A DNA stretch of 64,000 bases from Verrucomicrobiota bacterium (GTDB lineage Bacteria; Verrucomicrobiota; Verrucomicrobiia; Limisphaerales; UBA11358). Positions within the stretch are counted from its first letter, which is position 1. Every line of letters starts with the position of its first letter. Location: contig JAGWMQ010000001.1 in the NCBI GenBank assembly GCA_028873125.1, positions 36,744-100,743 of the forward strand, read 5' to 3'. Shown here in pieces: positions 3,254 through 41,547 of this stretch. The notes below the pieces were generated by a model. That model was not told where the DNA came from and searched no databases. It worked only from the letters and a program-made list of their open reading frames with translations. A program made the translations under genes and the position numbers.

Positions 3254-3727
3254 GCGTCGGCCTGTTTGTAACGCAAAGAAACTCGAAGGCAAAGGGATTT
3301 TCGGCGCGCCATTTGCGGCGGAAAAGCGCGCGCGGTTGTCAACTGCTGAATTTCGACCGCGGCCCCACGTGATTCGCGTCGTGGCCGGCGGCTCCCCGGC
3401 CGGGCTGCCGGAACTGTCCGGTGAGGCAAAACGGAAATCCCAACCAAACCCCGGCGTGTTTGTCTCCCTTGGCAAAGATTCACCCGGCATATTCGGGCTT
3501 GGTTCCGCGACCCGCGACGGACGGCGTTGCGTCATGAAGCGGCCGCTGGACGGTTTGGCCGGCAGCCATGATTCCCCTCAAGCGCAGAGGAAGGGTTCAG
3601 CCCCCCGCCTCCCGTGGTTTCAGGAACAAATCCGGAGGTGGAACCTCTCATTCCAGGCGCAATTGGGCTGACATGGAGTTCACCCAAAGCAATGAGCCAA
3701 AACCGAACGAAGAAAGGAAAACGAATT

Positions 3728-4895
3728 ATGAACATCGGAAAAAATCAAACAAAACAAGCCAGACAGAACCGATTCCCCGACGAGGGTAAAAATAGGACGG
3801 CAAAGGCCGGGCCGCCGGAAAGCTCGATCAGCCGTCGTTCGTTTTTGCACCAGGGGATTGCTGCCGGCGCAGGCGCGGTTGCGCTGGGGCTGTTGCCCGA
3901 CAGCGCGGCAGCCGACAACGGACTTACGCGCGGAGACGCCGCTATCCTGCGATTCCTGTCGGCGATCGAAATCCTGGAGACCGATGCCTGGCAGCAATAC
4001 AACGAGCTGGGCGGCATCCAGGACAGCGAAGTTCCCGGCGGCAGTGGGAACGCGCCGTACACGGCTGCCCTGGCGGTGCTGGATTCCGATATGGCCCAGT
4101 ATATCCATGACAACACCGAAGATGAATATACCCACTTTGAGTTCCTCAATGCCTATCTGGTTGCGCACAGCGCGGCCCCGGCCAATCTGGGCCGCTTTCG
4201 CACCTTGCCGAGCAGTCTGGCGACCGGCGCGCAGCAAATCGGCCGGCTCACCAACCTCATGCGACTGACTGTGGACACCAGTTGGTGGACGCGCTACCGC
4301 AGCCGGACCCAAAACCCGGATTTCGGCGACACCTTTCCCCATGCCGTGCCCGGCTTGAGCCAGGGGCAATTCCCGGGCATCCCCAGATCCGATGCCGACC
4401 TCATGCCGGCCGATCACCTGCAGGCCATCGCCAATACGGCGGGCTTTCATTTTGCCATCATCGAGCAGGGCGGCACCAGTCTTTACCCGTCGCTCACAAC
4501 GGGTTACCCATCGGGAGGCGTTGCGCATTTTGTTGAGCATCGGCCCCACCGAGACGATGCACTTTCAGACCTGGCAGGACAAGGCAGGCAATGCCCCTCC
4601 GCTGACCGATCCGACAAACGGGTTGGTGTTTCCAGATCTGAATGCCGCCCCACTGGGAGGCGAGGACTTCTCGACCAATCTCATCATGCCTGAGCCCACT
4701 ATATTTCTGAACAGAAAATTCCCGGTCTGTTCGATCATCCGGCCGACAGAAACCCATGGGGCGGCAATGGGCGTGGTGAAGTTCCTCACGGACACAGGAC
4801 TGTTCCGCGGTCAATCCCCCGAGTTCTTTGCGGTCCTCATGGAATTGGCCGACGCGGCGGATGCGGCGCGAGGCGAGGGGAGGGAAATCCGTTGA
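3728..4895 (+). pseudogene. Tat-signal Ferritin_2-like (di-iron) protein gene interrupted by a +1 frameshift near 4493-4497
   Basis: Twin-arginine leader SRRSFLHQGIAAGAGA and ferritin-like motifs DAAILRFLSAIEILETDAWQQY and EDEYTHFEFLNAYL in frame 2. The homology (QRVTHREALRILLSIGPTETMHFQTWQ...) continues in frame 0 (ORF 4392..4895). Confidence 0.7.
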
Positions 4896-5032: not shown

Positions 5033-6859
5033 CTATCTGGGATGGGAGCGAAAGGGGATGGGGCCGCCAAACGGCTGTGCCGGCGCACCAAGACCAACGA
5101 AGGGTGTCGGATTGGCTGAACGCCAAGAGGATGCGCGCGGGGCAGGCAACGAACGAGTAATTCTCCGGGGAGGCAGACGAGCCGGCGCGGGTCGCAAGGA
5201 ATTATTCAGATGAAAACCCGGCGCCGGCGCCCGACGCATTTCCTGTGGACGCGGATTCATTCGCCAAACCGGCAGGGCAACCTCGGGCTGGCGTGGGAAG
5301 ACTCGCGGCGAAAAAGCCGGGAGTTGCCGCGGCAGCGCGCCCTGAAAATCGGGACGAGAAAACCTGCGCGGCGACGGGTTGTAATCGGGCTTCATCGAAC
5401 GAGCCGGCGGTTGCGAAACTGGCAACCGCATTGCGCCTTCCTTCCATCTGGTTCCCGAGGGTCGCCCTGCCGGCGCCGTGAGTGTCAGCGACTTCGGCGC
5501 CGAGGCCTGGTGCGGCCAAAACACCCAGGAACCCGTTGAACTTTGACCCGTGAACGGGCGCGTCATCACTAAATCACGAGGCTTGATCCGGATCGGTCGC
5601 CGGCCAGTCGCAACCGGCAAAAATAGACTCCGGGGCGCCGGGCCATGGGGATCGGGCCGATAAATCACCCAAGCATGACCGAGCCTTTCCAGCCGGTCGG
5701 GCATCGAGAAGCGGCCCGTCCCGCGGGACATTTTGCGGATCGCCACCGGACGAAGCGGCGTGTGCGTCGCGGCTTCCACGCGCTTTAGATCAATACCTTG
5801 ATTAAAAAGGTGATGCTGTGAGTCCACCAGGAAACCCCTGTGCGGTCTGGTCCGATGGAAGATATCATCCGCGTCGCCATCGGGTCGGAAATGCCGGAAC
5901 GGATGCCGGTCGCAGAAGTGGACAATGTCAATGAACGTGAAAAAGATTGGTCTGAGGCCAAAATCGAAATTGAAACTGACCGCGAAGCCGTGGAACGTCC
6001 AGCCAATTCCGGGAACGAAGCAGGCCCCTGGGGGCAACGGCGCCCAGCCACAATAAAACGGTGACGCCCTCCAGCACACCCACGCCGGGCCCCACACCCG
6101 ATCCGGACACCAGACCCAACCGTAACGCGGATGGTTGCACCACCGGCCATAATGAAACGGCGCCCAGCCCCAAGAATAATACGAGTTCCAGTACCAGCCG
6201 CAGTCCGTCCACAGCCAGTAACCGCCGTTGCGGTAAGGCCGCCAACCTCGATCCGTCACGACCACCGCCGGTTGCCAGCACCAACCGTAGCCGGGCAGGT
6301 CCAGCCACGTTCCATAAGGGGCCAGCGCGTCGTGGAAATAATTGGCGGACGGCGGCGGCGATTCGGGCGCTTCCGCCATTGTGGGCGGTCGCACGACGGA
6401 GTTTTCGGCCGGCGCGCCCGTTTCCGGCGGCGGTGTGGTTGCCGGCGCCGCGGACACCGCCATTTGACTTGAGCCGGCGGAAGTGCGCTGGACCAAAGCC
6501 TGAAGCACGGAAGACGAGATGCCCAGGTCCCGCAGATATACGATTTGATCCGCTGTAAGCGGAGGCGAAGCCGGCGAGTTTTGAACATAAGCAATAATCA
6601 CGCTGTCCCTGACGCCGGATTGCGCCATGCGGAGGATTTGGGCCAAGTGGGGCGGCAAATTGATGCGGGCGGGCTGGACTTCCGTGGCCGGCGCAACATT
6701 TGTGTCCGCTGGAGCGGCGGCGGGAGGCGCGCCGGGTCCACTGCCGGCCGCGGCGGAGTCCGTTTTGTCCGCCGCAATGAGGGACAGCAAAGACACTGCT
6801 CCTACCGCCCCGGCGGTCATCATCATCATCATTTTCCAATTCGGCGTTTTCATTCTCAC
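5033..6859 (-). CDS. Secreted Trp-rich protein (YGW/HYGRW repeat core, DUF6600-like) with Pro/Arg-rich tail
   Basis: 608 aa with an N-terminal signal-like segment. The core YGWCWQP...[23 protein letters not shown] is typical of W-rich HYGRW proteins. No competing ORF on the other strand looks real. Confidence 0.7.
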
Positions 6860-7070
6860 CGCGTCTGCCGGGTTCTGTTTAATGAGACGTAAGCGCGCAA
6901 GAAACCATTTTCAAGGTAAGAGGCACTGGGACGGGCCAGGTTCCCAAAAAATTATTGGTTGTCCGGTGCGCTCCCCATCCGTTCCAGGACATTTGCAATT
7001 CGTTTCAACACCAGCGATAATTTCTCTGCGTCGCGTGCCTGTCGTAAACGATCCGCCAGTTGCCCGGAAT

Positions 7071-7925
7071 ATGCATTGCCAGCTTGCCAGGCCGGTTTCA
7101 GGGAAGTTTTCCCGTGATGAGGCGGCGGGCTTCACCCTCCTCGAGTTGCTGGTGGTGATCGCCATCATCGCCATTCTGGCGGCGCTCCTGCTGCCGGCGC
7201 TGTCGCGGGCGCGGATGCGGACGCAGGGCATCGCGTGTCTGAACAATACGCGGCAGTTGGTCCTGGCCTGGCAGCTCTATGCGGGCGATCACGACGACCG
7301 GCTGCCCTACAATCTGGGCATGGCCGGCTCGTCGCTGCGCACCAACCTCAACTGGGTCAACAACGTCATGACCTGGGGAACCGATCCCGACAACACCAAT
7401 CCGGCCACGCTCACCGAGGCGAGCCTGGGCCCGTACGTGGCCGGCAACACGGCCACGTACCATTGCCCTTCCGACCACGCCTTGAGCGCGTCGCAGCGCG
7501 CCGCCGGCTGGAGCGTCCGCATCCGCAGCTATTCGATGAACGCGCTGGTGGGCGACGCCGGTGAACTCTCGGCCAGGGGCTTCAACGTCAACGATCCCGA
7601 CTACCTCCAGTTTTTCAAACTGGCACGAATCCCGCAGCCGGCGGAGATCTTCGTGTTCCTCGACGAACACCCCGACAGCATTGACGACGGGTATTTCGTC
7701 AACCGCGCCTACGAGCCAGAGTGGATTGATTTACCGGCGTCGTATCACGACGAGGCGGCTGCGTTTTCCTTTGCCGACGGCCACAGCGCATTGCATCGCT
7801 GGACGCAAGCCGGCACGCGCCCTCCGGCGCAACCCGACGCCGCGCATCTGCCCATCCCGCTTTCCAGCGGCGACCACGCGGATTTCGACTGGGTCACCGC
7901 CCACATGAGCGTCGAACACAACTAA
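7071..7925 (+). CDS. Prepilin-type N-terminal cleavage/methylation domain protein of the H-X9-DG class
   Basis: [25 protein letters not shown] prepilin motif, and C-terminal [14 protein letters not shown], which is H-X9-DG (TIGR04294-like). The start is set at the ATG at 7071 just upstream of the pilin motif. Confidence 0.85.
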
Positions 7926-7939
7926 CGGAACAACTTGCA

Positions 7940-8695
7940 TCAAAGGAATTGCCGGAGCGCCCGTTCGTCGCCAATCGTGCCCAGCAGGTAGAGTTTGCCG
8001 CCTTCTGTCCAGGCGGCGGTGAACAGACGGTTGACGCCGGCCAGTTGCGGCGGGGCCGCGACGGGCGCGTCTTTCACCGCCGCCCGCTCCACCACAAAGA
8101 GCCACAAATCACTCCGTTGGCCGGGTGGGAGCGGTCTTGCGGTCCGGAAACAAATCATGGAAACCGCCGCCCCCTGCCAGCGTTCAATCGCACAGCCGGT
8201 GAGCGTCGTCTTTTGCAGCGGCGCGGGCAGCACGTAATCTGCCGGCGCGCCGTGCCGCGCGAGGTAGGCGCGGATCTGGGTCGGGTCGTTCGTCGTCAAA
8301 TCCATCGCGTAACCGCGCAGCGCGATGCCCGACATCCGGCTCCGGTAAATGGCAAAGGTGTTGTCGCCCCCGCCCGAGCGGAACCAGAGCGTGGTCAGGG
8401 CGAGCAACGCCACCACGGACGCCGCCGCCGCGAGAATGAGGCGGGGCTGCCGGAAAATGGCTTTCCTCCGTGCGGTCTCTTCGGAAATGATCTGTTCCTT
8501 CAATCCGGCTGGGGCGGCGATCTGCCGGAACCGGTCGCGGAGCGTGTTTTGCCGCGCGTCATGATCCTCCAGCCAGCGCCCGAGCGCCGGGTCGTTCCGG
8601 GCCAGCGCCAGCACCGCGGCAATTTGCGGGTCGTCCGCGTCCACCGTGCCGGGGCGGTAGAGCAGCAAAATGGTTTTGATTTCGTCTTGATTCAC
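7940..8695 (-). CDS. Putative membrane anti-sigma factor
   Basis: 251 aa with a single central TM (LILAAAASVVALLALTTLWF). Its start overlaps the stop of the upstream ECF sigma gene by 4 nt. Confidence 0.6.
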   Translation of the reverse strand: MNQDEIKTILLLYRPGTVDADDPQIAAVLALARNDPALGRWLEDHDARQNTLRDRFRQIAAPAGLKEQIISEETARRKAIFRQPRLILAAAASVVALLALTTLWFRSGGGDNTFAIYRSRMSGIALRGYAMDLTTNDPTQIRAYLARHGAPADYVLPAPLQKTTLTGCAIERWQGAAVSMICFRTARPLPPGQRSDLWLFVVERAAVKDAPVAAPPQLAGVNRLFTAAWTEGGKLYLLGTIGDERALRQFL

Positions 8696-9216
8696 AGATT
8701 CGTGGGTTTGGAGCGCGCACCGGTGGTCCGGCCGATCAGCAATTGGTGCAGCCGGCCCAGGCCGCGCGTCAGGCGCGATTTGACGGTGCCCAGCGGTACG
8801 CCGAGAATTTCGGCGATCTCGTTGTAGGAACAGTCCTGCAAATAGAACAGCGCGACCGGCGCTTGGTAAAGGTCCTCAAGCTGGGCCAGGGCTTGAAGCG
8901 CCTGCGCGGCGTCGAGGCCGCCGCCCACGTCCGGGGAAACGGCTGGCAGGTCCGCGCCCGCGTGTTCAAGTTCGACGTGCGGAAAGCGGGTTTGCCGGCG
9001 CCTCGCGCCCAGGAATTCGCGGTGCAGCGTGGTGAACAACCAGGTCTTCACTTTGGAGGCGTCGCGCAATTGATGGCCTTTGGCCGCCCAGACGCAAAAC
9101 GTCTGCTGGGTGAGGTCGCAGGCTTCCGCCTCGTTGCGGGTCAGGCTGAAGGCGAATTGATAAAGCGCCTCGTAGTATCGGGTCACCAGACTTTCGAAGT
9201 CAGCGGTTTCAGCCAT
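8692..9216 (-). CDS. ECF-type RNA polymerase sigma-70 family factor
   Basis: Region 2 (YEALYQFAFSLTRNEAEACDLTQQTF) and region 4 HTH (YNEIAEILGVPLGTVKSRLTRG). Confidence 0.9.
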   Translation of the reverse strand: MAETADFESLVTRYYEALYQFAFSLTRNEAEACDLTQQTFCVWAAKGHQLRDASKVKTWLFTTLHREFLGARRRQTRFPHVELEHAGADLPAVSPDVGGGLDAAQALQALAQLEDLYQAPVALFYLQDCSYNEIAEILGVPLGTVKSRLTRGLGRLHQLLIGRTTGARSKPTNL

Positions 9217-9232: not shown

Positions 9233-9315
9233 TAAGAGCGGTCGGCGCTGGAAATGTTCCCGTCGAATTTGACGGAAACTTGTTTCGGGAACAAATTGTG
9301 TCTCCATTCATCTCA
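9233..9315. promoter_or_regulatory. Divergent pair of ECF-like promoter motifs (GGAAC-N18-TCTYA on each strand)
   Basis: Plus strand: GGAAC 9288-9292, 18-nt spacer, TCTCA 9311-9315, facing the PEP-CTERM gene. Minus strand: GGAAC (complement of 9256-9260), 18-nt spacer, TCTTA (complement of 9233-9237), 16 nt before the sigma gene ATG. An inverted repeat GTTCCCGTC/GACGGAAAC lies at 9256-9279. Confidence 0.35.
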
Positions 9316-9454: not shown

Positions 9455-10054
9455 ATGAAAATAACATCAAGAACGACGGTCAGCCATCAGATTTTGAGCC
9501 TTTTGTTCGCGTTGGGGGCGGCGTCTGCCGCCTTTGGGCAAAATGGACCCGAACGCGCCACCGCCACGCTCAACGGCGTGCAAAACGGCGGTTTGTATGA
9601 TTACACCATCAGCCTCGACAACACCGGCACTGTTCCCATCGGGACTTTCTGGTATGCCTGGATACCGGGTCAATTTTACCTCCCGTCCGCTCCGGCCAGC
9701 GAGGCGCCGCCGACCGGTTGGACGGCCAGCACCCCTTCACTTGGTGGAAATTATTCCATTGAATACTCGGCCAGTTCGTCGGCTGACTATTTGCAACCGG
9801 GATCGTCGCTGAATTTCGACTTCACCAGTTCAGACACCCCGGCCACCTTGGCCGGGGATTCCTCCAGCTATCCCGGAACGCCGATTGGAACCTCTTATCT
9901 CTATGAAGGCGCCGCCTTTTCCGACCAAGGCTACCAATTTGTCGTGCAGTCCATCCCGGAACCTTCGGTGGCGGGTTTGTTGACGGCGGGTTTTCTCGGC
10001 TTGGCGTCCGCCCGGCGGTGGAAGTTGCGAAGGCCGGGCGCCACCACCGTTTGA
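9455..10054 (+). CDS. PEP-CTERM sorting-domain secreted protein
   Basis: Signal peptide, then C-terminal IPEPSVAGLLTAGFLGLASARRWKLRR (PEP motif, TM and basic tail). AGGAGA lies upstream of the ATG. Confidence 0.85.
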   Translation: MKITSRTTVSHQILSLLFALGAASAAFGQNGPERATATLNGVQNGGLYDYTISLDNTGTVPIGTFWYAWIPGQFYLPSAPASEAPPTGWTASTPSLGGNYSIEYSASSSADYLQPGSSLNFDFTSSDTPATLAGDSSSYPGTPIGTSYLYEGAAFSDQGYQFVVQSIPEPSVAGLLTAGFLGLASARRWKLRRPGATTV

Positions 10055-10092
10055 GGAAATATCGGGGCACGATGGTTCGGTTCGGGAAACCA

Positions 10093-10124
10093 ACGGACGG
10101 CAAAAGAAGCCGTCCGTGAATTTT
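10093..10124 (+). terminator. Terminator-like hairpin after the PEP-CTERM gene
   Basis: ACGGACGGC-aaaagaa-GCCGTCCGT followed by GAATTTT. Confidence 0.45.
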
Positions 10125-10636
10125 CCGCACATTTTGACCGGTGCTCGGGGATGGCAGACGGATTTCTGCTCTGGGGACGAGGGGGCGGTGAACGATGATG
10201 CTGCGCCAGGAGCGCTGCTGGAGTTGGCGTCAGGAGGCACTGTGGTCGGTCAAAAAATTCCCGGCAGAGTTGACAGAAGCCCGGCTCAAGGGCACGTCGA
10301 GACGGCTCGTTCCAAAGACAAGGATGTTTTTGTCCAAAGTCTCTCTGGCCGTCGCCGAGGTTTTCCTATTTTCCTTCGGATTTTGGCCTTCGGCTTCGGC
10401 CGCAACCAATTAACGTTGCCTTCGAAAATTTCTACTTTCTCCGGGAACTTTTTCTTCCCTCGTTCGTCACACTGTTCTGAATGGCTGAGGAAGGGTTTGA
10501 AGACGCGGCGCCAAGAAACCTGCGCGGTACGAATCGTTATGGCGTGCTCCAAAATTTTTGGGTCGTGCGGGAGAAATACGTTGGCGGCGGGGAAAAAACA
10601 GTGCAACACCAGTCCGCCGCGCGAGGAAAGGACGGC

Positions 10637-12526
10637 ATGAGAACATTGAGAAACATTGGAACAACGAGAGGATTGCAGACAACCTTTTGCCTCTTGGGCG
10701 CTTGGGCGTTTGCTGGCGCGGCGTGCCTTGTCCGCGCTCAAAGCGCCTACACCCAACACAACCTGGTTTCCGACGTGCCGGGCCTGGCGGACATCACCGA
10801 CACGAATCTCTTGAACCCATGGGGCATCGCGTTCAGCGCGACGGGGCCGTTTCGGATTTCCGACAATCACAGCGGATTGTCCACGGTTTACGATGGCACG
10901 GGCACGCCGCAGTCGCTCGTCGTCGCCATTCCGCCGCCGGCTGGCGGCGCGCCACCCGCCGCGCCGACGGGAATTGTTTTCAACAACACCACCAACTTTA
11001 TTGTTGCGTCCAATGCGGCCGCGAAATTTATTTTCGCTACGGAAGACGGTACCCTCTCGGCCTGGGCCAGCGGAACCGATGCCGTGCTGAAGGTGGACAA
11101 TTCCGCATCGAGCGCCATTTACAAAGGCCTGGCCCTGGGCAGCGCCAACGGCAGCAACTACCTTTACGCCACCGATTTTCACGATGGCAAGGTGGACGTG
11201 TTTGATGAAGAATTTAATCCCGTCGCCTGGCCGGGCGCCTTCACCGACACGAACATTCCGGCGGGGTTTGCACCCTTCGGCATCCAGACCATCGGGACGA
11301 ACGTGTTTGTGACTTACGCGAAGCAGGATGCCAACGCGGAAGACGACGTGGCCGGGCCGGGCTACGGTTACGTGGACATCTATGACACCGGCGGAAACTT
11401 GGTGAAGCGATTCATCTCGAACGGTGCGCTGAATTCGCCCTGGGGCATGGCGGTGGCGCCGGCGAACTTCGGGCTGTTCGCCGGGCAACTGCTGATTGGA
11501 AACTTTGGCGACGGAACGATCAACGCCTTTGATCCGGCGAGCGGCACACTGGTGAGCACGCTGAAGGACACCAACGGCGCGCCGATTGCGATTGACGGTC
11601 TTTGGGGCTTGAAGTTCGGCAACGGCGGTAGCGGCGGCGATACGAACACGCTTTATTTCACCGCCGGCATCGCCGCGGGCGGAGCGGTCGAGGACCATGG
11701 TTTGTTCGGCAGCCTTTCAGTGGCCGTCCCGTCGCGGAACCCCACCGCAGCCAATGTCAGTGTCCTGAACTATCAGTTCAATCCAGCGACCGCCAACATC
11801 AATGTCAATGACACGGTTATTTGGACTTGGCCCAGCGGCTCCTTTGACCACAACGTCACCAGCACGAGCAATCCCCAGTCATGGCCAGCCTCGCTCACCG
11901 AGAATGGCCCGTATTCCTTTACCAACACTTTCACGGCTGCGGGCACCTATCCGTATGAATGCACAATTCATGCTGTCAGTTTCGGGATGAAGGGCACGAT
12001 CATCGTCGCCGCGCCGGACGTGCCGCCTGCGGCTTTGCTCTTCAGTCCGGGTTCCGGCGCCGTCTTCGCCGCTCCCGCCAACGTCACGCTGCGCGCCGCG
12101 GCCGGAGACACCGACGGGTCGGTGACCAATGTGCAATTCCGGGTCGGCGCGACCGTGCTGACCAACCAAACGACCGTTCCGTTTTCGGCGGTCGCCGCCA
12201 ATCTGGCCGCGGGCAATTACACGCTTACGGCCATCGCCGCCGACAACGGCGGGTTGACGGCGACCAATTCCGTGGACATCAGCGTGGTTACGCCGACCGC
12301 GGTGACGCTGACGAATCTGGCGGCGACTTCCGGATCGAATTTTCAATTCAGTTATTTGGTCAACACGGGCTTGACTTACATCGTGCAAATGTCCACCAAT
12401 CTGGCTGCGGGCAATTGGATTCCCGTGGCCACCAACACGGCCGCCAGCAATCCCGCCGTATTTGTGGACCTCCACGCCACGAACAATCCGGCCTTTTACC
12501 GCGTCGGCCGGCTCCCCAATCCCTAG
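10637..12526 (+). CDS. Secreted TIGR03118-like beta-propeller fused to a cupredoxin (type-1 copper) domain, Ig-like domains and a C-terminal FYRV module
   Basis: N-terminal half matches TIGR03118 from memory (YTQHNLVSDVPGLA, NPWGIAFS, LIGNFGDGTINAFDP, GLWGLKFGNG). The cupredoxin part has FDHNVTS and YPYECTIHAVSFGMKG (His, Cys, His, Met ligands). The start is at ATG 10637 with an AGGAAAGGA upstream. Confidence 0.85.
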   Translation: MRTLRNIGTTRGLQTTFCLLGAWAFAGAACLVRAQSAYTQHNLVSDVPGLADITDTNLLNPWGIAFSATGPFRISDNHSGLSTVYDGTGTPQSLVVAIPPPAGGAPPAAPTGIVFNNTTNFIVASNAAAKFIFATEDGTLSAWASGTDAVLKVDNSASSAIYKGLALGSANGSNYLYATDFHDGKVDVFDEEFNPVAWPGAFTDTNIPAGFAPFGIQTIGTNVFVTYAKQDANAEDDVAGPGYGYVDIYDTGGNLVKRFISNGALNSPWGMAVAPANFGLFAGQLLIGNFGDGTINAFDPASGTLVSTLKDTNGAPIAIDGLWGLKFGNGGSGGDTNTLYFTAGIAAGGAVEDHGLFGSLSVAVPSRNPTAANVSVLNYQFNPATANINVNDTVIWTWPSGSFDHNVTSTSNPQSWPASLTENGPYSFTNTFTAAGTYPYECTIHAVSFGMKGTIIVAAPDVPPAALLFSPGSGAVFAAPANVTLRAAAGDTDGSVTNVQFRVGATVLTNQTTVPFSAVAANLAAGNYTLTAIAADNGGLTATNSVDISVVTPTAVTLTNLAATSGSNFQFSYLVNTGLTYIVQMSTNLAAGNWIPVATNTAASNPAVFVDLHATNNPAFYRVGRLPNP

Positions 12527-12547
12527 GCCGACGCGCAGTCTTTTCGC

Positions 12548-13477
12548 ATGCGATCGCCTCGAATGATCCCGGGCGTGCTGGCACTGGGCCTGTTGCTTTC
12601 GTGGCCGGCGAAATCGGGGAAAAATTTATTGCCGCCGCCGGGGGGCAACGCGCCGGTTCGTGTGTTCGCCGCCACGGGCGTGGTTGAATCGCTCCAGCTG
12701 GACGACAAGACCGCGGTCATCCGCAACGACGCCATCTCCAATTTCATGGCCGCCATGACCATGCCGTTCCAGGTCAAGGACGCCGGAGCCCTGGCCGGCC
12801 TGAAACGCGGCGACAAAATTTCGTTTCGACTTCACGTGACCCGGACGGAAAGCTGGATTGACCGGATCGTGAAAATCGGAGCGGCGGAGCCGGCGGCAAG
12901 TCCAAAGGCTGCGGAGGCCTCCCCGGCCGCGGCGCCACCCCCGCAGCGGGCCGATTCCATACTGGACTACGCCTTCACCAACGAGCTTGGGCGGCCGGTC
13001 CGTTTGAATGATTTCCACGGGCAGGCGCTGGCGGTCACCTTCTTCTACACGCGCTGCCCGCTGCCGGACTACTGTCCGCGGCTCTCGAAAAATTTTCAGG
13101 AGGCCTCGCAAAAACTCGAAGCGATGGCTCAAGCGCCCACCAACTGGCATTTTATTTCCGTTTCGTTCGACCCGGCATTTGACACTCCGTCCGTGCTGAA
13201 GGCCTACGGCCAGAGCTACGATTACGATCCGAAACACTGGAGTTTTCTGACCGGGCCGCCGGACAAAATCGCCGAACTGGCGCGCGCGGCGGGGGTGGCA
13301 TACGAAGCGGAGGGCGGCACGATCAAACATAATTTCCGCACGCTTATCGTTGACGCCACCGGCCATTTGCAGATGATTTTCCCGACCGGCGGCGACTTAT
13401 CGGGGGAAATCGTTTCGGAAATCCTCAAGGCCGCCGCGGTGACAAATCAGATGGTTTCGCAAAACCAAAACCGGTGA
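12548..13477 (+). CDS. CusF-like copper-binding domain fused to an SCO1/SenC thioredoxin-fold copper chaperone
   Basis: The N-terminal domain FMAAMTMPFQVKD...LKRGDKISFRL is CusF-like. The C-terminal domain FFYTRCPLPDYCPR...HNFRTLIVDATG is SCO1/SenC-like, but with CX5C instead of the usual CX3C. Confidence 0.8.
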   Translation: MRSPRMIPGVLALGLLLSWPAKSGKNLLPPPGGNAPVRVFAATGVVESLQLDDKTAVIRNDAISNFMAAMTMPFQVKDAGALAGLKRGDKISFRLHVTRTESWIDRIVKIGAAEPAASPKAAEASPAAAPPPQRADSILDYAFTNELGRPVRLNDFHGQALAVTFFYTRCPLPDYCPRLSKNFQEASQKLEAMAQAPTNWHFISVSFDPAFDTPSVLKAYGQSYDYDPKHWSFLTGPPDKIAELARAAGVAYEAEGGTIKHNFRTLIVDATGHLQMIFPTGGDLSGEIVSEILKAAAVTNQMVSQNQNR

Positions 13478-14256
13478 AACTGAAACGGACAGCCGCGGCG
13501 GCGCTGGCGTTTGCCCTTCCAGCCGGCGCCACGTTTATTTTCATTTCCTGTTCCACCACTTCGCACCCCATCGTCGCGCCGCTGGAAATACCCGGCGCGC
13601 ATGACGTCGGCAACCAGGTCTGCGCGCAGTGTCACGCGGACATTGTCCGCGAATTTCCCGCCAGCCCCCACGCGCACTTGGCGCTGGCCAACGCGGGCGC
13701 GCCCGGCGGCTCCGGCTGCGAATCCTGCCACGGTCCCGGCAGCAAACACGTCGAGTCCGGCGGCGCAGCCCGATTCATCATCAACCCCCGCCGCGACCCC
13801 GACGCCTGCTTCCGCTGCCACCTCCAGGTCCGCGCCGCATTTGAATTGCCCGACCATCACCCCGTCATCGAGGGCCGGATGAGTTGCATGCAATGCCACG
13901 ACCCGCACGGCGGCGACATCTACAAGACCTCCGGCGGCCTGGCGATGGCGCGGCGGAATGAGACCTGCGCCCAGTGCCACCGCGAACAGACGCGCCCGTT
14001 TGTCTTCGAGCATCCGGCCGTGCGCGAAGGCTGCACGACCTGCCACGACCCGCACGGCTCCGTCAACCGCATGTTGCTCACGCAGGCCGACGACAATTTG
14101 TGCCTCCGTTGCCACGCCCAGACGCAGGCGGCGCCCGGCCGGATTTACATCGGCAACGTGGACCACACGGCGCTCCTGCAAATCGGCACCTGCTGGTCCG
14201 CCGGCTGCCACACGGCCATTCACGGTTCGGACGTGGACCCGCGGCTGCGATACTGA
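13474..14256 (+). CDS. Lipoprotein multihaem c-type cytochrome (7 CXXCH + 1 CX4CH)
   Basis: Lipobox FISC. Haem motifs: CAQCH, CESCH, CFRCH, CMQCH, CAQCH, CTTCH, CLRCH and CWSAGCH. PFVFEHP and IHGS motifs are typical of paired-CXXCH MtrA/DmsE/NrfB-like proteins. The GTG start overlaps the SCO stop (GTGA). Confidence 0.9.
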   Translation: MKLKRTAAAALAFALPAGATFIFISCSTTSHPIVAPLEIPGAHDVGNQVCAQCHADIVREFPASPHAHLALANAGAPGGSGCESCHGPGSKHVESGGAARFIINPRRDPDACFRCHLQVRAAFELPDHHPVIEGRMSCMQCHDPHGGDIYKTSGGLAMARRNETCAQCHREQTRPFVFEHPAVREGCTTCHDPHGSVNRMLLTQADDNLCLRCHAQTQAAPGRIYIGNVDHTALLQIGTCWSAGCHTAIHGSDVDPRLRY

Positions 14257-16710
14257 ATGAATGAGAAGTTCCAAACTTCAAGTTCCGGGTTCCAAAAAGT
14301 GCCAAACTCCAAGCTCCAGTCCGGCTCCGGTTTGAAGTTTGGAACTTGGAACTTCTTTGGAATTTGGTGTTTGGAACTTGGAATTTTGTCTTCCGTTTCC
14401 GCCGCCGGGGTTGGTCCCACCAATCTCCCGCCGCCGGCGCCGGTCAAAATCAATTTCGATCGCGACGTGCGCCCGATTTTTGAAGGCAGTTGTTTCCGCT
14501 GCCACGGCCCGAGGGAACCGAAAAACGATTTCCGCCTCGATGTCCGCTCCCAGGCGGTGGAAGGCGGGGACGCCAACACGAACGACATCGTCCCGGGCCA
14601 CAGCGACCGGAGCGAACTCATCCGCTACGTGTCCGGGCTTGACAAACGGGTCCATATGCCGCCGCGCGACAGCGGATTGCCGGCGCTGACGCGTGAGCAG
14701 GTCGCCGTGCTGGAGGCGTGGATTGATCAAGGCGCGCCCTGGGGCACGAACGCCGGACCGCCGGCGCTCGTCTTCGCCCTCACACCGACGCTGCGCGGCT
14801 TCGACGCGCACGGCGACCGCGGAAAATTCCGCGAACTGGAAGGCGTTCCCGAAGGCTTTGGCGGCGGCGTGGAAAATTTTTTCAGCCGGCAACGGAACGC
14901 CGGCGCCGTCCTGACGGTGGAAGGCCGCGCCCTGCTCCCCGAACGCGACCTCAAGCTCGCGCTCAAGCTGGAAAAGGACGACATCGGTTTCGTGGACGGC
15001 GGTTTTGAAACGTGGCGGAAGTATTACGACGACACCGGCGGGTATTATCCGGGATTCACCCCGTCCACGTATTCCCCGGGTCGGGACCTCCACGTTGACA
15101 TGGGACGCGCCTGGATGGATTTCGGACTGACCCTGCCCCGCGCGCCGAAAGTGGTGCTCGGTTACGAATATCAATCGCGCCAAGGCAACGAATCCACGCT
15201 GGCGTGGGGAACGGTCCTCCAAACCAGCGGCGCCAAAAACATTTATCCCAATGTCCAAGGCGTGAGCGAACACACGCACCTTTTGAAACTTGAACTCACA
15301 GACGAATGGCTTGGCTGGAACATTGAGGACCGCGCGCGCGGGACATTTTACCGGCTCGGCGAATCGCGCAACGACACGCCCGCCATCCCGATCCTGTCCG
15401 GCGGCACGCAGCGCCTGGATCAAAAGGTGACCTACACGCGGGGCGCGAACACCTTCCGCGTCGAGAGGCAGGTCACGGACTGGTGGCGCGTCTCCGCCGG
15501 CAGCCTGTATTCTCGCTACGATGGCACGACGCTTTTCAATCTGACCGCCGCGGATGTCTCCTGCGCGCCGGTTCCGGGCGCCTATTGGCGGTCGGAAGGC
15601 GTCACTCTGGAACGCGATTCGCGCGTGGCCAGTCTCGCCAGCCTGTTCCTTCCGGTGAAGGGCTTTAGCCTCTCGGCCGCCGGCCAGGCCGAGTGGACGC
15701 ACGAGAAGGGGTTTGGCGACGTGGCGCTGGATTTTGGCGACCCCAATCCTGCGTTTCCCGGCACGGTGAGTGCGAACCAGAACCAGACCGAATTTTCGGA
15801 GAATCTCGACGCTCAATTCAACCGGCTGCCCCACACCGTGGTGTTCGCCGAGACGCGGCTGCAACAGGAGAGCATCGGACAATCCGACGAGGCGGACAAC
15901 GCCATCGCCTTCCTGGACGGCGCCGGGGCCATTGGCCAGCGCACCGACGCGCTCAATCATCTTTACGACACACGCGCCGGCTTCACCTCCTCGCCGTGGT
16001 CGTGGCTGGAATTTGGCGGCCACTACCGCCGCCGCGACAGCGACACCGGCTACGACCATTCCAGCGCGCAACCCGGCAATGGCTATCCGGGCTTCATCAA
16101 TCACCGCGACATCGCGATGGACGAGATCGCGGGGCGGCTGGCGCTGCGTCCGGCGTTCTGGTTGAGCGGGCGGCTGACCTACGCCTGGAACGTGTCGCGT
16201 TATTCCGCCGCAACCGCGGGAGCGACCAATTTTGACGGCAGCCTCGCCGCCCCCGGCGGCCCCCTTCTGGCCGGACGCACCGCATCGCACGTTGCCGGAC
16301 TGAATCTCATGATCACTCCCGCGCAAAGGTTTTACTTTTCCGGCGCGTTCACCTACAGCTTCTCCCGGACGACCACGGCGGACAACGGCGATGCCGCCGT
16401 CGTGCCCTATCGCGGCGACGTTTTTACCGTCAGCGCCGGCGCGGGTCTTGTGCTGGACGCCAGGACAGACTTGAACGCCACCTATGTATTTTCGCGGTCA
16501 GCCTACGGGCAAAACAATACGGCGGGGCTGCCCTTGGGCCTCGATTTCACGCGCCACGAACTGCTCGTGGGCGTCACGCGGCAACTGTCCAAATGCTGGT
16601 CCGGCGCGCTGCGTTACCGCTTTTCCCAATACGCCGAACCCAGTTCAGGCGGGGCGAACGACTTCACGGCCCACGGGATTTTCGCCACGCTCAATTATAA
16701 ATGGCCCTGA
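14257..16710 (+). CDS. PSCyt1-type monohaem cytochrome domain fused to a large putative outer-membrane beta-barrel
   Basis: DVRPIFEGSCFRCHGP...MPP...LEAWIDQGAPW matches the Planctomycete cytochrome C (PSCyt1) domain. The remaining ~650 aa show alternating hydrophobic strand patterns rich in Y/G/S/T, ending in GIFATLNYKWP (aromatic OMP-like terminus). The ATG abuts the stop of the multihaem gene. Confidence 0.7.
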   Translation: MNEKFQTSSSGFQKVPNSKLQSGSGLKFGTWNFFGIWCLELGILSSVSAAGVGPTNLPPPAPVKINFDRDVRPIFEGSCFRCHGPREPKNDFRLDVRSQAVEGGDANTNDIVPGHSDRSELIRYVSGLDKRVHMPPRDSGLPALTREQVAVLEAWIDQGAPWGTNAGPPALVFALTPTLRGFDAHGDRGKFRELEGVPEGFGGGVENFFSRQRNAGAVLTVEGRALLPERDLKLALKLEKDDIGFVDGGFETWRKYYDDTGGYYPGFTPSTYSPGRDLHVDMGRAWMDFGLTLPRAPKVVLGYEYQSRQGNESTLAWGTVLQTSGAKNIYPNVQGVSEHTHLLKLELTDEWLGWNIEDRARGTFYRLGESRNDTPAIPILSGGTQRLDQKVTYTRGANTFRVERQVTDWWRVSAGSLYSRYDGTTLFNLTAADVSCAPVPGAYWRSEGVTLERDSRVASLASLFLPVKGFSLSAAGQAEWTHEKGFGDVALDFGDPNPAFPGTVSANQNQTEFSENLDAQFNRLPHTVVFAETRLQQESIGQSDEADNAIAFLDGAGAIGQRTDALNHLYDTRAGFTSSPWSWLEFGGHYRRRDSDTGYDHSSAQPGNGYPGFINHRDIAMDEIAGRLALRPAFWLSGRLTYAWNVSRYSAATAGATNFDGSLAAPGGPLLAGRTASHVAGLNLMITPAQRFYFSGAFTYSFSRTTTADNGDAAVVPYRGDVFTVSAGAGLVLDARTDLNATYVFSRSAYGQNNTAGLPLGLDFTRHELLVGVTRQLSKCWSGALRYRFSQYAEPSSGGANDFTAHGIFATLNYKWP
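14267..14386. repeat. Heptamer-periodic palindromic repeat (CCAA-type arm then TTGG-type arm)
   Basis: Left arm gttccaaacttcaagttccgggttccaaaaag...ctccaagctccag. Right arm tttgaagtttggaacttggaacttctttggaatttggtgtttggaacttggaatt. The arms are mutually complementary in several registers. Confidence 0.85.
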
Positions 16711-27285: not shown

Positions 27286-28395
27286 TCAGCCCGATTGCGG
27301 CTCGACGACGATTTTCAACGAATCGTCCGCCGGCCGCGCCGCCAGCGCAATGGCCGCCGGCGCCTGTTCCAGCGGAAACCGGTGGGTGATCAAATGCCGC
27401 GCATTGAGTCGGCGGGAAAAAACCAGGCGTGCCGCCTCGGCCTGCAGGGTGAGGTCCGCCGAATAACTGCCCAGCAAATCCTTTTCCTCCATGCAGATGG
27501 CCGCCGGGTCAATGCCCAGGGTCCCGCCGTGCCGGGTGTGGGCGAACAACAAAACCTGTCCGCCGCCCCGCACGGCCCGGAGCGCCTGCCGCGTCGCTTC
27601 GTCGGAAGGAACAGCGATAATTGCCGCGTCCAACGTCCCTGGCCCAAAGCCCAATCTCCCCCCTGCGCCGCGTCGTTCCCCAAACTTGGGATTTGGCACT
27701 TCGAGCTTGGAACTTGGAACCAACTTCGTCCATTCCGCGCCCCATCGTCTGGCCAGCCGCAGACGCGACGCCAGCAAATCCGTCGCCAGGACCCGCGCGC
27801 CCCTTAATTTGAGCAGCCGCGTGAACATCAGACCAATCGGCCCCTGCCCCGCCACCAGCACGCGGTCGCCTCGCAAAAGGTTCAGGCGATGAATCGCCTT
27901 CAAGACGGTGTTGACCGGTTCGAGCAGCGCGCCCTCCTCAAAGGAATTCTTCGCCGGAATCTTCACCAGGCCCGGCAATGCGAAGTCCATCACCCGGACG
28001 TACTCGGCAAAGCCGCCGCCGGCCGGCTCGAATCCCGCCGTGATGCCCGTGCGCCGGTACTGCGGACACTGGGCGAAAGCGCGGTGCCGGCAAAAATGGC
28101 ACTGCAAACACGGCACGTGATGATGCAACGCCACCCGGTCGCCCGCTTTGAACCCCAACTTCGAACTTCCAACTCCCAGCTTCACAATTGTCCCGGCCGT
28201 TTCGTGCCCGAAAATGCGCGGTGGCGCCGGCGCGCCCGACTGGATTTTTTTGATGTCCGTCGGGCAGACACCGCACACGGCCACCCGGACCAGCAATTCG
28301 TTGGGGCCGATCCGCGGCACGGGCACCGACTCGACGCGCACGTCATTGACGCCGCGATACACCGCCGCCCGCATCGTTTTGGGAATGGCAAGCAC
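27286..28395 (-). CDS. Zinc-dependent medium-chain dehydrogenase/reductase, carrying repeat-derived in-frame segments
   Basis: VCGVCPTDIKK, GHETAGTIV, GDRVALHHHVPCLQCHFCR (structural Zn Cys cluster) and VAGQGPIGL (Rossmann fold). The segments LVPSSKLEVPNPKFGE and GVGSSKLG are encoded by heptamer-repeat DNA. Confidence 0.85.
   Translation of the reverse strand: MLAIPKTMRAAVYRGVNDVRVESVPVPRIGPNELLVRVAVCGVCPTDIKKIQSGAPAPPRIFGHETAGTIVKLGVGSSKLGFKAGDRVALHHHVPCLQCHFCRHRAFAQCPQYRRTGITAGFEPAGGGFAEYVRVMDFALPGLVKIPAKNSFEEGALLEPVNTVLKAIHRLNLLRGDRVLVAGQGPIGLMFTRLLKLRGARVLATDLLASRLRLARRWGAEWTKLVPSSKLEVPNPKFGERRGAGGRLGFGPGTLDAAIIAVPSDEATRQALRAVRGGGQVLLFAHTRHGGTLGIDPAAICMEEKDLLGSYSADLTLQAEAARLVFSRRLNARHLITHRFPLEQAPAAIALAARPADDSLKIVVEPQSG
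27682..27728. repeat. Heptamer repeat copy inside the dehydrogenase CDS
   Basis: aaacttgggatttggcacttcgagcttggaacttggaaccaacttcg, translated on the minus strand as VPSSKLEVPNPKF. Confidence 0.75.
28153..28183. repeat. Heptamer repeat copy inside the dehydrogenase CDS
   Basis: ccccaacttcgaacttccaactcccagcttc. It shares an identical 20-mer aacttccaactcccagcttc (28164-28183) with uvrC positions 45432-45451. Confidence 0.75.
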
Positions 28396-40155: not shown

Positions 40156-41547
40156 TCACGGATTCTGGAAGACGCGATAGAACCGCGAGCCGGTGTTGGT
40201 CGGCGCGCTGATCGTGGTCGGCGGTCCGTAGTCAATCCACTGTGTCCGGTCCGCCGGCGCCACGACGGCCGGCGGCGCGATCCGGGCGTTGGTGAAGGTG
40301 GCGGTGTCGCTGTAAACCACCGTGTAACTGCGCCCTTGGGTGGAAGGAAATTCCAGCAGCACCGCGCCGTCGGGCAATGGGACGAGGCGCGTGATGTTCA
40401 GGTTGGTGCTCGTCGTCGTCGCCTTGGGGGCGGACCAATCGGGCGGCGAGACGCCCAGGGCGGTGTAATTGGAATTGGCCACGGTGACGGGCAGCCGCGT
40501 GGGCACAAAATACTTCAGGAGCAGGTCCACACTCCGATTCGTCTCCAGCGTGTTCGCATAAACCACGAACGGTTGGCCGTCGTTGGTGCCGACGGCGTTG
40601 AACAGGACGTTGGTCAGGCCGGACACGATGACCCGCGCCGACGGGACCGCGTTTGTGCCGCGGTTCGACAACCGGACGGTTTGATTCATCAGACCGGTCT
40701 GCGGATCGTAGGTCATGGCCGAGACGTTGGTGGCGATCAAATTGGTGGAAAGATAATTCGCCACCACGATGTTGGTGCCGGCCGAATTATTGGCGGGGTT
40801 GGCATCCAGCAAACCCGGTGCGATCAGCGTCGAGGAAAATGGGAACACGCCGGCGTTGGCCGGCTGAACGGTCAATTGGAAATTTTGGGAACCGCCGTTG
40901 GTCACCCTGCCCAGGCTGAACAGCAGCGCGTTGTTGGTGAACGTATAGGCGGCGGGCGAAGCGCGGATCAGCATTGCCCCGGCGGGCAGGGTGTTGCTCA
41001 GCATGACGCCGGGCACAGTGTCCGGCCCGGCGTTGGTAACGGTCACCCCAAGCGTCATCCAGTCGTTGACGAAGACGCTTTGGGCGGGGCCGGCGAGTCG
41101 CACGCCCAGATCGGCCTGCGCGCTGACTACCTGGACGACAACGTTGGTCGAAAGGGTGTTGGTGGTGTTGACCTGGACCGTGTTGGTGAGGAAGCCGTAC
41201 GCCGTCGGTTCGAGGGTCAAAGTCATCTGCGCGTTGGTGCCGGCGGGCACTGGGCCAAGCAGAAAGATGATGTGGTTGGCGGTGTTGGTGACGCTGCCCA
41301 GGCTGGAGCTGGCAACCTGCACCAAAACCGTCTCCGAAGGCGAGTTGGTCACGGAAACGTTCGGCAAAGGACTGCCCGTGGAGTTGGTGACGGTGAGGGT
41401 GTAGGTCACGAAACTGTTGGTCGTCACCACGAGGTTGGTTGAAGCGACCACCGAGAGGCCGAGGCTCTGCGCGCCCGACTTGGCCGCAAGAAGGACCAGC
41501 GCCGGCGCGAGCAGCAACATGGTCTTGAAATGGCCGGGACGGTTCAC
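40156..41547 (-). CDS. Secreted DUF11-repeat (conserved repeat domain) protein with a C-terminal FYRV module
   Basis: Signal peptide. Repeated YTLTVTNSTGSPL / LGVTVTNAGPDTVPGV motifs typical of DUF11. Ends in GSRFYRVFQNP. Its stop is 3 nt from the start of the barrel gene. Confidence 0.65.
   Translation of the reverse strand: MNRPGHFKTMLLLAPALVLLAAKSGAQSLGLSVVASTNLVVTTNSFVTYTLTVTNSTGSPLPNVSVTNSPSETVLVQVASSSLGSVTNTANHIIFLLGPVPAGTNAQMTLTLEPTAYGFLTNTVQVNTTNTLSTNVVVQVVSAQADLGVRLAGPAQSVFVNDWMTLGVTVTNAGPDTVPGVMLSNTLPAGAMLIRASPAAYTFTNNALLFSLGRVTNGGSQNFQLTVQPANAGVFPFSSTLIAPGLLDANPANNSAGTNIVVANYLSTNLIATNVSAMTYDPQTGLMNQTVRLSNRGTNAVPSARVIVSGLTNVLFNAVGTNDGQPFVVYANTLETNRSVDLLLKYFVPTRLPVTVANSNYTALGVSPPDWSAPKATTTSTNLNITRLVPLPDGAVLLEFPSTQGRSYTVVYSDTATFTNARIAPPAVVAPADRTQWIDYGPPTTISAPTNTGSRFYRVFQNP

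Follow-up and report, generated by a model that had tools for sequence, protein, structure and literature searches.

The locus described here raises the question of whether a bacterium of the phylum Verrucomicrobiota moves electrons across its outer membrane and, if so, in which direction and with which partner proteins. We analysed a 64-kb stretch (64,000 nucleotides, nt) of contig JAGWMQ010000001.1, referred to below as the window, in which four open reading frames (ORFs), all on the + strand, span positions 10637-16710. A reading made earlier from the DNA letters alone (the sequence-only reading) had taken these genes for an operon encoding a candidate for an undescribed outer-membrane electron conduit. 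Our profile searches, synteny comparison and structural models predict that the locus specifies an MtrAB-type porin-cytochrome conduit across the outer membrane, which would be controlled by an extracytoplasmic function (ECF) sigma factor and equipped with copper accessories. It is well supported that the system is real and widespread; its function as a conduit is predicted from sequence and modelled structure. The four genes are as follows.

10637-12526, + strand: gene 1, within the maximal ORF 10481-12526; the start was taken at the Met of codon 53, which gives a plausible signal peptide
12548-13477, + strand: gene 2, CusF-SCO1 fusion
13474-14256, + strand: gene 3, MtrA-family octahaem lipoprotein
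14257-16710, + strand: gene 4, signal peptide, PSCyt1 monohaem domain and MtrB-like barrel

Genes 1 and 2 are separated by a 21-nt gap (TAG at 12524-12526 to ATG at 12548), genes 2 and 3 overlap by GTGA at 13474-13477, and the TGA of gene 3 abuts the ATG of gene 4 at 14254-14259. The ORF coordinates and the sequence agree with the sequence-only reading on these junctions and on the common direction of the genes, and the motifs FDHNVTS, YECTIHAVSFGM, MTMPF and CFRCHG, which it had pointed out, are all present. Every domain that it had assigned to the four proteins was also recovered in our profile searches.

Conservation of the locus among relatives

Conservation was assessed in the best 80 loci with a gene 4 homologue. 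A co-directional gene 3 homologue lies directly upstream of the gene 4 homologue in all 80 of them, and the C-terminal half of gene 1 (the cupredoxin part), gene 2 and the sigma and anti-sigma genes are found nearby in 62, 46 and 57 loci, respectively; the other neighbours are housekeeping genes (leuS, coaX, birA, nadC). The synteny search proposed with the sequence-only reading thus found the genes together in relatives. That reading had also named three results that would count against it, and for each of these our analysis gave the opposite: the C-terminal part of gene 4 is modelled as a barrel and not as a soluble fold, the genes are syntenic, and the copper ligands are in place.

Gene 4 has more than 850 relatives (protein clusters) in the protein collection searched and 464 tblastn-confirmed matches in species-representative genomes. 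The best matches come from soil, peat, bog and tundra metagenome-assembled genomes (MAGs) of Verrucomicrobiota that belong to the Limisphaerales/Pedosphaera type. Several MAGs in the set (loci L013, L036, L044, L058, L065, L066, L074, L003, L009, L041, L048 and L050) carry the labels Bifidobacteriaceae, Akkermansia muciniphila, Methylomirabilota, Acidoferrum, Dongiaceae or Pseudomonadales, which probably reflect mis-binned or mislabelled contigs.

Gene 3 is related to MtrA

The gene 3 product matches the Pfam family Paired_CXXCH_1 in a profile search and has a lipobox Cys (Cys26), seven CXXCH motifs (residues 50, 82, 112, 138, 165, 187 and 210) and one CX4CH motif (CWSAGCH, residue 240). In a phmmer search it matched chain 6r2q_A of the solved MtrCAB complex, which was taken as MtrA (the depositor's label is wrong), with an E value of 1.1e-26 over MtrA residues 174-324, that is, the C-terminal pentahaem half; the N-terminal part of gene 3 aligns more weakly to the first half of MtrA. 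Its best NCBIfam match is the GSU2203 family NF041028 (E 4.7e-51, 173.9 bits, below the cutoff of 325), and TIGR03508, the DmsE/MtrA decahaem family, is matched with E 4.4e-48 (164 bits, below the cutoff of 192.2). Because of the MtrA match and the nearness to the DmsE/MtrA and GSU2203 families, gene 3 is, on sequence comparison, a true homologue of MtrA that has been shortened to eight haems. Exactly seven CXXCH motifs and one CX4CH motif are present in 69 of the 80 homologues. The family has a conserved lipobox, L-x-S-C-S/A-T, followed by PLEIPGAHYVGN, and since this lipobox is conserved, the protein is considered to be a lipoprotein, unlike MtrA.

Gene 4 joins a haem domain to a predicted MtrB-like barrel

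Two parts were distinguished in the gene 4 product.

14491-14670, + strand: PSCyt1 monohaem domain (C79, C82, H83 and M134-P-P)
14770-16704, + strand: MtrB-like barrel of 26 strands (AlphaFold2 model, Foldseek)

The PSCyt1 domain was found by profile search at residues 79-138 (E 5e-13). Residues C79, C82, H83 and M134-P135-P136 are invariant among 40 gene 4 sequences, and the domain is thereby seen to carry the sequence signature of a His/Met class-I-like c-type haem. The PSCyt1 profile is matched by all 40 relatives and that of the Geobacter monohaem cytochrome PccH by 34 of them.

The remaining ~650 residues gave no Pfam match. Specifically, gene 4 of the window did not match the Pfam family MtrB_PioB (PF11854) at E <0.1, six of the 40 relatives matched it weakly (best E 8e-4), and the GSU2204 family NF041027 was matched with only 14.4 bits, below its cutoff of 350. 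Searches of the PDB with the single sequence and with a profile did not find MtrB and returned matches to the haem domain only (hydrazine synthase alpha, a monohaem cytochrome and FoxE). No record was found when the window's gene 4 product was looked up. One relative, P0292, scored 25.3 bits against MtrB_PioB, over the gathering score of 23 bits; it is cut by the contig end and was for this reason not counted towards a haem-less class, for which P0291 and P0312 (see below) were used instead.

An AlphaFold2 model built on 40 homologues (mean pLDDT 75.7, most strand blocks >90; pLDDT is the predicted local distance difference test) has a helical N-terminal domain followed by 26 long antiparallel strands at residues 172-816, with no plug domain. 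When the model was compared with the PDB by Foldseek, the top match was MtrB (6r2q_B, E 4.7e-13, template modelling (TM) score 0.70 normalised to MtrB), and all other matches were 22-strand TonB-dependent receptors with TM scores of 0.33-0.48. The model and this fold match agree with the earlier proposal that the C-terminal ~650 residues form a transmembrane barrel. Because the sequence searches missed MtrB, the link of gene 4 to MtrB is drawn from the predicted fold and the weak Pfam matches. The sequence-only reading, in which the locus merely keeps the logic of MtrAB, is to be revised: the E value of 1e-26 between gene 3 and MtrA and the weak MtrB_PioB matches of 6/40 gene 4 relatives indicate homologues. 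In outer-membrane barrels with an even number of strands, both termini are periplasmic. The haem domain is joined to strand 1 by ~13 residues, and therefore it should sit at the periplasmic mouth of the barrel.

A search with the barrel alone against 1.84 billion representatives gave 769 relatives in two size classes, one of ~800 aa with the N-terminal domain and the other of ~660-710 aa without it. Two barrels of the short class (P0291 and P0312) have the same octahaem lipoprotein directly upstream; because the haem-less class shares this lipoprotein, the fused form in the window is, by this comparison, a variant within a broader octahaem-plus-barrel family. Such a sister barrel without the fused haem (~665 aa, 28-33% identical), preceded by the same octahaem lipoprotein, is seen in L083 (293-3142) and L084 (97-2894), and in L083 two radical-SAM/SPASM genes follow.

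The copper genes

Genes 1 and 2 have the following domains, where Ig stands for immunoglobulin and CTD for C-terminal domain.

10748-11719, + strand: gene 1, signal peptide and TIGR03118 propeller (E 2.6e-108, residues 38-361)
11768-12007, + strand: gene 1, type-1 cupredoxin (Copper-bind, E 9.4e-06, residues 379-457; ligands H405, C442, H445 and M451)
12038-12232, + strand: gene 1, Big_7 Ig domain (profile search)
12293-12523, + strand: gene 1, Ig-like CTD ending FYRVGRLPNP
12668-12868, + strand: gene 2, CusF-like domain with M-x2-M-T-M-P-F (CusF_Ec, E 7e-13, 48.7 bits, cutoff 27)
12965-13363, + strand: gene 2, SCO1/SenC domain with C170-x5-C176 and H261 (SCO1-SenC, E 5e-19, 69 bits, cutoff 22.8)

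The cupredoxin domain scores 26.4 bits against Copper-bind, above the cutoff of 21.2, and H405, C442, H445 and M451 align with the ligands of plastocyanin. Among 47 homologues, the Cys and the second His do not vary, and at least 90% have the first His; gene 1 of the window also has the axial Met (CTIHAVSFGM). The AlphaFold2 model of the C-terminal half (pLDDT 93) consists of three successive beta-sandwiches, the first of which, the cupredoxin domain, resembles amicyanin, plastocyanin and pseudoazurin (TM ~0.7, Foldseek); the CTD has generic Ig/Fn3 matches only. Gene 1 is accordingly predicted, from alignment and model, to carry a type-1 copper site, and the His/Cys/His/Met site named in the sequence-only reading was upheld by the ligand alignment and, for the two His and the Cys, by the conservation in the 47 homologues. 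No lipobox or PEP-CTERM signal was found in gene 1, and no export signal or anchor was identifiable.

The same reading had counted the blue-copper propeller as a part of the system. The propeller proved to lie outside what is conserved: a typical relative of gene 1 is a putatively secreted protein of ~285 aa with a cupredoxin, one or two Big_7 Ig domains and a ~70-aa CTD ending FYRVGRLPNP, and more than 1,195 such cupredoxin-Ig-CTD proteins were found, whereas the fusion of propeller and cupredoxin occurs only in the window and in L002. A TIGR03118 propeller gene stands separately in L080 (6941-8101, the first operon position) and alone in L022 (16578-17803), where it has its own ECF motif directly upstream. 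Since the propeller is fused in the window and L002 and a separate gene in L080 and L022, it is, judging from these arrangements, a recurrent but lineage-specific accessory of the regulon and no chance fusion. A PDB search with the propeller domain was uninformative.

In the 80 loci the CTD is found in 51 cupredoxin-type (gene 1-like) ORFs and 8 others and is almost confined to genes of the cluster; a database search with the CTD alone gave 7 small unannotated proteins. We infer that it is a system-specific docking module. A role as a general sorting tag was rejected on account of this near-confinement to the cluster. In a second family of CTD proteins, an unknown ~150-aa head (TVWTGPLITYNQPSPDPTQ..NQDRIT..VWLTR) takes the place of the cupredoxin. 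Its ORFs, the first three of which start at or just past an ECF motif, are:

L061, 7260-7997
L067, 7275-8039
L074, 5338-6066
L078, 6901-7734
L030, 6569-8221

A 470-aa ORF with DUF11 repeats at 40156-41568 (- strand) of the window ends in ...SRFYRVFQNP, a looser FYRV...NP CTD outside the cluster.

In gene 2, the CusF site M-x-A-M-T-M-P-F and the SCO1 His (H261) are conserved in 44 sequences, and the His and Trp of Escherichia coli CusF are apparently replaced, as read by eye. The simplest reading of this domain combination is that the gene 2 product chaperones periplasmic Cu(I) to the type-1 copper site in gene 1.

ECF sigma regulation

The sigma/anti-sigma pair reported upstream in the sequence-only reading is present, and four ECF-type motifs were located in the window.

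8692-9216, - strand: ECF sigma factor (Sigma70_r2 and r4_2; TIGR02937 68 bits, cutoff 42.9)
7940-8695, - strand: membrane anti-sigma factor (weak DUF3379/anti-sigmaE matches; 4-nt overlap with the sigma gene)
9288-9315, + strand: ECF-type promoter motif (GGAACAAATTGTGTCTCCATTCATCTCA), directed towards a PEP-CTERM ORF followed by genes 1-4
9233-9260, - strand: ECF-type promoter motif, 44 nt before the sigma ATG
6917-6944, - strand: ECF-type motif (GGAACC-N17-CTCTTA), ~60-85 nt upstream of a DUF6600 ORF
3623-3650, + strand: ECF-type motif before an ORF with a twin-arginine translocation (Tat) signal and weak ferritin likeness

In relatives, the DNA that separates the sigma gene from the operon has a common motif, GGGAACAA(A/T)-N~17-(C/A)TCT(T/C)A, in both orientations. 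When the 64-kb window was scanned with the strict pattern GGAAC-N18-TCTYA, 4 matches were found against 0.08 expected. The strict motif lies upstream of the operon in 42 of the 80 loci and upstream of the sigma gene in 39 of 57. In most loci, the copy that faces the sigma gene lies 44 nt ahead of the start of that gene. Judged by sequence, the window has the parts of a group-4 ECF unit, namely a sigma factor, a membrane anti-sigma factor and an AAC-type promoter, GGGAAC(A)-N17-TCTYA. The sigma gene is predicted to be autoregulated through the putative promoter at 9233-9260, and the operon is very probably the main target of this sigma factor. The periplasmic domain of the anti-sigma factor has C168 (GC...), C182 (M.CF) and DLWLFV conserved in at least 90% of 52 sequences, and the Cys pair could act as a thiol or metal-based sensor.

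The ORF behind the motif at 6917-6944 (5033-6859, - strand, 608 aa, DUF6600 with E 1e-30) may belong to the same sigma regulon. Behind the motif at 3623-3650, the ORFs 3614-4693 and 4392-4895 (both + strand) carry SRRSFLHQG, a signal of the Tat type, and match Ferritin_2 weakly (E 0.002); the frame of this ferritin-like ORF seems shifted near 4400-4690, which could be a frameshift, a pseudogene or an assembly error.

Proposed mechanism and the direction of electron flow

We propose that the octahaem chain would run through the barrel in the way that MtrA runs through MtrB, held by its lipid in the outer membrane's inner leaflet. The fused haem domain at the periplasmic mouth would then be a built-in port between the wire and soluble carriers, and it would make up for the two haems that are missing in comparison with MtrA. 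The CusF-SCO1 protein would capture periplasmic Cu(I) and load the type-1 site of gene 1, which would dock on the complex via its FYRVGRLPNP CTD. In the uptake direction, the conduit would oxidise extracellular Fe(II), Fe(II) minerals or reduced humics. From the octahaem protein, the electrons would move on to the His/Met haem, from there to either the cupredoxin or a soluble cytochrome c, and finally to a terminal oxidase.

Uptake is the direction that we tentatively favour, at somewhat below an even chance, and it is the least certain step of the proposal. We favour it because the added centres (the His/Met haem and the type-1 copper) are of normally high-potential kinds, which would trap electrons from menaquinol and would form a downhill path from the low-potential wire to an oxidase, and because the gene content mirrors that of oxidative systems. 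Such parallels are Cyc2 with rusticyanin, and PioAB with PioC, a high-potential iron-sulphur protein (HiPIP). The mto clusters encode periplasmic monohaem cytochromes (MtoD/PmcA), and MtoD, with a potential of +155 mV, has been proposed to feed a terminal oxidase (PMC13390432). A further parallel is a Sideroxydans cluster with a cupredoxin, SCO1 and a cytochrome, which is induced on magnetite (PMC11429942).

Several points weigh against uptake or against details of the mechanism proposed above. The Ig domains of gene 1, arranged as beads on a string, and the propeller of the window look like parts of surface proteins, which fits outward flow; the TIGR03118 family was named for its association with PEP-CTERM. 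His/Met ligation is no guarantee of a high potential. About half of the cupredoxin homologues have no axial Met and a shortened loop, CTxH-GFTG, and these may be three-coordinate type-1 sites with a different potential. The Cys pair of gene 2 is CX5C (TRCPxPxxCP) and is kept so in 44 sequences, whereas that of canonical SCO1 is CXXXC. The haem domain of gene 4 is poorly modelled (pLDDT <50 at residues 80-116), and the conserved neighbourhood, flanked by housekeeping genes, contains no inner-membrane partner or oxidase. Finally, Limisphaera in culture reduces Fe(III) and encodes a porin with a haem motif (PMC13608581), and this favours outward flow if that porin belongs to the gene 4 family.

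Alternative explanations

The same conduit might work outward, essentially as implied by the sequence-only reading with its proposed secreted blue-copper propeller in the place of the surface decahaem. Electrons would pass from menaquinol through the periplasm and the octahaem protein to the blue-copper protein at the surface, which would stand in for MtrC as the terminal reductase and would act on Fe(III) chelates, Mn(IV), humic quinones or further acceptors outside the cell. We regard this as a real if less probable possibility, nearly as likely as uptake. It draws on the homology to MtrAB, on the adhesin-like architecture of three sandwiches in gene 1, to which the window adds a propeller and a PEP-CTERM ORF under the same promoter, and on two reports: electron transfer to humics was proposed for a Verrucomicrobial porin-octahaem cluster by He et al. 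(PMC5615132), and Limisphaera strains, which respire ferric citrate and ferrihydrite, encode porin-associated multihaem cytochromes, likened to the present ones by description only (PMC13608581). Against it stands general chemistry, which leads one to expect that type-1 copper and His/Met haem are usually high-potential centres, and that a centre at +200 to +400 mV, placed at one or the other end of a low-potential wire, would be a poor reductant of ferrihydrite or humics and a trap for menaquinol electrons; gene 1, moreover, has no identifiable export signal or anchor, and its CTD is specific to the cluster. A bolder form of the outward arrangement is a mixed haem-copper wire, an MtrAB-like conduit that ends at the surface in a type-1 copper protein docked by the FYRVGRLPNP domain, and we judge this form unlikely.

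Two further explanations were considered. The presence of two copper proteins among the four genes, the conserved Cys pair of the anti-sigma factor, which could sense a metal or the redox state, and the known theme of a porin paired with a periplasmic copper protein (PcoAB; PMC5566968) would suit a copper-handling device. Its ECF pair would respond to stress from copper or redox change, its CusF-SCO1 protein would buffer Cu(I) or move it about, and its conduit would, with the cupredoxin, either oxidise Cu(I) that is toxic in the periplasm or reduce external Cu(II) so that it can be taken up, loosely like PcoAB/CopAB and CusF. The invariant core, however, is the MtrA/MtrB-like pair, present in 80/80 loci, whereas the copper genes are absent from 18-34 of the 80; no multicopper-oxidase motif, resistance-nodulation-division (RND) or P-type ATPase gene or CopB/PcoB-like barrel was found, the fold match is MtrB, and the other putative regulon members in the window are ferritin-like and DUF6600 proteins, with no copper genes. 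We consider this device improbable. It is even less probable that gene 4 is an ordinary transporter or secretion pore (a TonB-dependent-like receptor or the exporter of gene 1) without a transmembrane wire. Foldseek did return numerous TonB-dependent receptors of 22 strands at E ~1e-7 to 1e-9, among them OprC, a copper transporter, but with TM scores of 0.33-0.48 as compared with the 0.70 of MtrB. In addition, the modelled barrel has 26 strands without a plug and carries a fused motif for covalent haem, and its gene lies next to that of an MtrA homologue in 80/80 loci. A TonB-dependent receptor or secretion pore was rejected on the strand number, the missing plug and the low TM scores.

Comparison with known systems

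As in MtrAB, MtoAB and PioAB, a multihaem cytochrome homologous to MtrA is encoded directly upstream of a 26-strand MtrB-like barrel. As with MtoAB and PioAB, there is no surface decahaem of the MtrC type, and a small high-potential carrier is encoded alongside, this being MtoD/PmcA or the HiPIP PioC in the mto and pio clusters and the PSCyt1 haem and the cupredoxin here. The locus differs from MtrAB in having eight haems instead of ten, with a shortened N-terminal pentahaem module and CX4CH as the last motif. Further differences are that the cytochrome is a lipoprotein, that the barrel bears a fused monohaem domain, and that the locus adds a copper protein, a dedicated copper chaperone and control by an ECF sigma factor of its own; the scores of the window's proteins do not reach the DmsE/MtrA and MtrB_PioB thresholds of NCBIfam and Pfam.

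A blue-copper protein, rusticyanin, is genetically linked to Cyc2 in the rus operon of Acidithiobacillus. Cyc2 is the known fusion of a cytochrome to a porin, in which a single N-terminal CXXCH domain precedes a barrel of 16 strands, as compared with 26 in MtrB-type barrels (PMC8406198). Gene 4 resembles it in the fusion of a single N-terminal CXXCH domain (PSCyt1, residues 79-138) to an outer-membrane barrel (from residue 172). The 16-strand barrel of Cyc2, however, is too small for a multihaem protein, and its own haem is the sole redox centre, whereas gene 4 has 26 strands and an octahaem partner in 80/80 loci. No sequence similarity to Cyc2 was detected with the libraries used.

Within the Verrucomicrobia, He et al. 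(2017) described, in bog, humic and soil genomes, a porin of at least 20 predicted strands beside a periplasmic cytochrome with eight conserved haem sites; they proposed electron transfer to humic substances and called the clusters non-homologous to Mtr (PMC5615132). The haem-less short class of barrels (P0291, P0312) probably corresponds to these clusters, to which it is likened by description only. The paper mentions no haem domain on the porin, no cupredoxin, no copper chaperone and no ECF regulator (PMC5615132). In Limisphaera, which belongs to the same order, Limisphaerales, strains able to respire with ferric citrate and ferrihydrite encode multihaem cytochromes and, beside them, a porin with one N-terminal haem motif; this porin was described as unrelated to MtrB, is likened to gene 4 by description only, and was reported with no note of a copper partner or regulator (PMC13608581).

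In Geobacter, GSU2203 (OmcK) and GSU2204 likewise place a cytochrome beside a barrel of the MtrB/PioB family with a CXXCH motif, and NCBIfam lists the GSU2204 family of such barrels (PMC13188914). They differ in that GSU2203 is a decahaem protein, no copper genes are known there, and the scores of the window's proteins lie far below the family cutoffs. The Slit_1812-1818 genes of Sideroxydans encode cupredoxin proteins with adhesin-like domains, SCO1/SenC and a cytochrome, and are induced on magnetite during solid Fe(II) oxidation (PMC11429942); unlike the present locus, that cluster is proteobacterial, has no barrel or multihaem wire, and includes two multicopper oxidases.

In the literature that we searched, no PSCyt1 haem was reported on an MtrB-like barrel of 26 strands paired with an MtrA-like octahaem lipoprotein, nor was a conserved operon partnership of such a conduit with a cupredoxin-Ig-CTD protein and a CusF-SCO1 fusion, or a dedicated ECF sigma factor with a recognisable promoter for it. 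The claim of an undescribed system therefore holds for the full combination, which was not found in this literature, but not for the core of porin and octahaem cytochrome, which had already been reported. New with respect to this literature are the fused-haem barrel with its octahaem protein, the copper partners and the ECF sigma factor; the core of barrel and octahaem protein had been noticed before, and the Cyc2 fusions and the GSU2204 barrels were known at the level of annotation.

The gene 3/gene 4 junction and the surrounding region

The start of gene 4 overlaps a dispersed repeat, which together with the remaining features near the operon is given below.

14263-14390, + strand: palindromic repeat copy of TTGGAAC heptads, a long hairpin overlapping the start and the signal-peptide codons of gene 4
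9455-10054, + strand: PEP-CTERM protein ORF, between the ECF promoter and gene 1 (TIGR02595 17.7 bits, cutoff 16)
7071-7925, + strand: DUF1559/prepilin-type N-methylation (pseudopilin-like) protein, convergent with the anti-sigma gene (N_methyl domain and weak DUF1559 match)

The repeat is built of TTGGAAC/TTGGAGC heptads, with 16 matches in the window against 1.15 expected, and further copies lie at 27700-27719, 28160-28172, 45428-45440, 52723-52849 and 61459-61471. The copy at 14263-14390 folds at -57.1 kcal/mol (z = -5.2). The gene 4 ORF takes its first ~43 codons from this copy, among them those for the stretch that must act as a signal peptide (…FFGIWCLELGILSSVSA|AG). Most gene 4 homologues have ordinary signal peptides ending in SAAETN, and P0114 has a similar repeat-encoded one. 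The database gene call P0001 (774 aa) starts 43 codons downstream of the gene 4 ATG, which would leave the protein without a signal peptide; translation may begin at the ATG next to the stop codon of gene 3 or elsewhere. Because the hairpin covers the first 43 codons, both the start of gene 4 and its co-translation with gene 3 are uncertain, and of the earlier claim that all four genes are co-translated, the abutment stands while the coupling of these two genes is in doubt.

The PEP-CTERM ORF has a counterpart nearby in only 2 of the 80 loci, and the DUF1559 pseudopilin-like gene is a neighbour in 42. The ~580 nt before gene 1 (10055-10636) contain no convincing gene, terminator or Rfam match. 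Scans for sigma-70 promoters and terminators gave background levels only, and Rfam at gathering thresholds gave zero matches across the window.

Significance

The locus joins two designs that have so far been held to be alternatives, the Cyc2 fusion and the wire-in-barrel of MtrAB, and adds a copper centre with a dedicated chaperone. If the mixed haem-copper wire considered above were true, it would be the first copper-terminated conduit for extracellular electron transfer, would have interchangeable heads (a cupredoxin, a propeller-cupredoxin or the unknown ~150-aa domain) on one docking domain, and would be switched on by its own ECF sigma factor in several hundred Verrucomicrobial species of soil and peat. 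Verrucomicrobia are among the most abundant bacteria of soil and peat, yet hardly anything is known about how their respiration connects with the redox cycling of iron and humics. It was only in 2026 that Fe(III) reduction was first shown in the phylum (PMC13608581). The gene 4 family is a concrete and widespread candidate for a link to iron and humic cycling, and its regulator and promoter could serve as expression markers. If confirmed, the system would add to the chemistry known from extracellular electron transfer and would make it possible to test directly which way the electrons flow and how the potentials are tuned.

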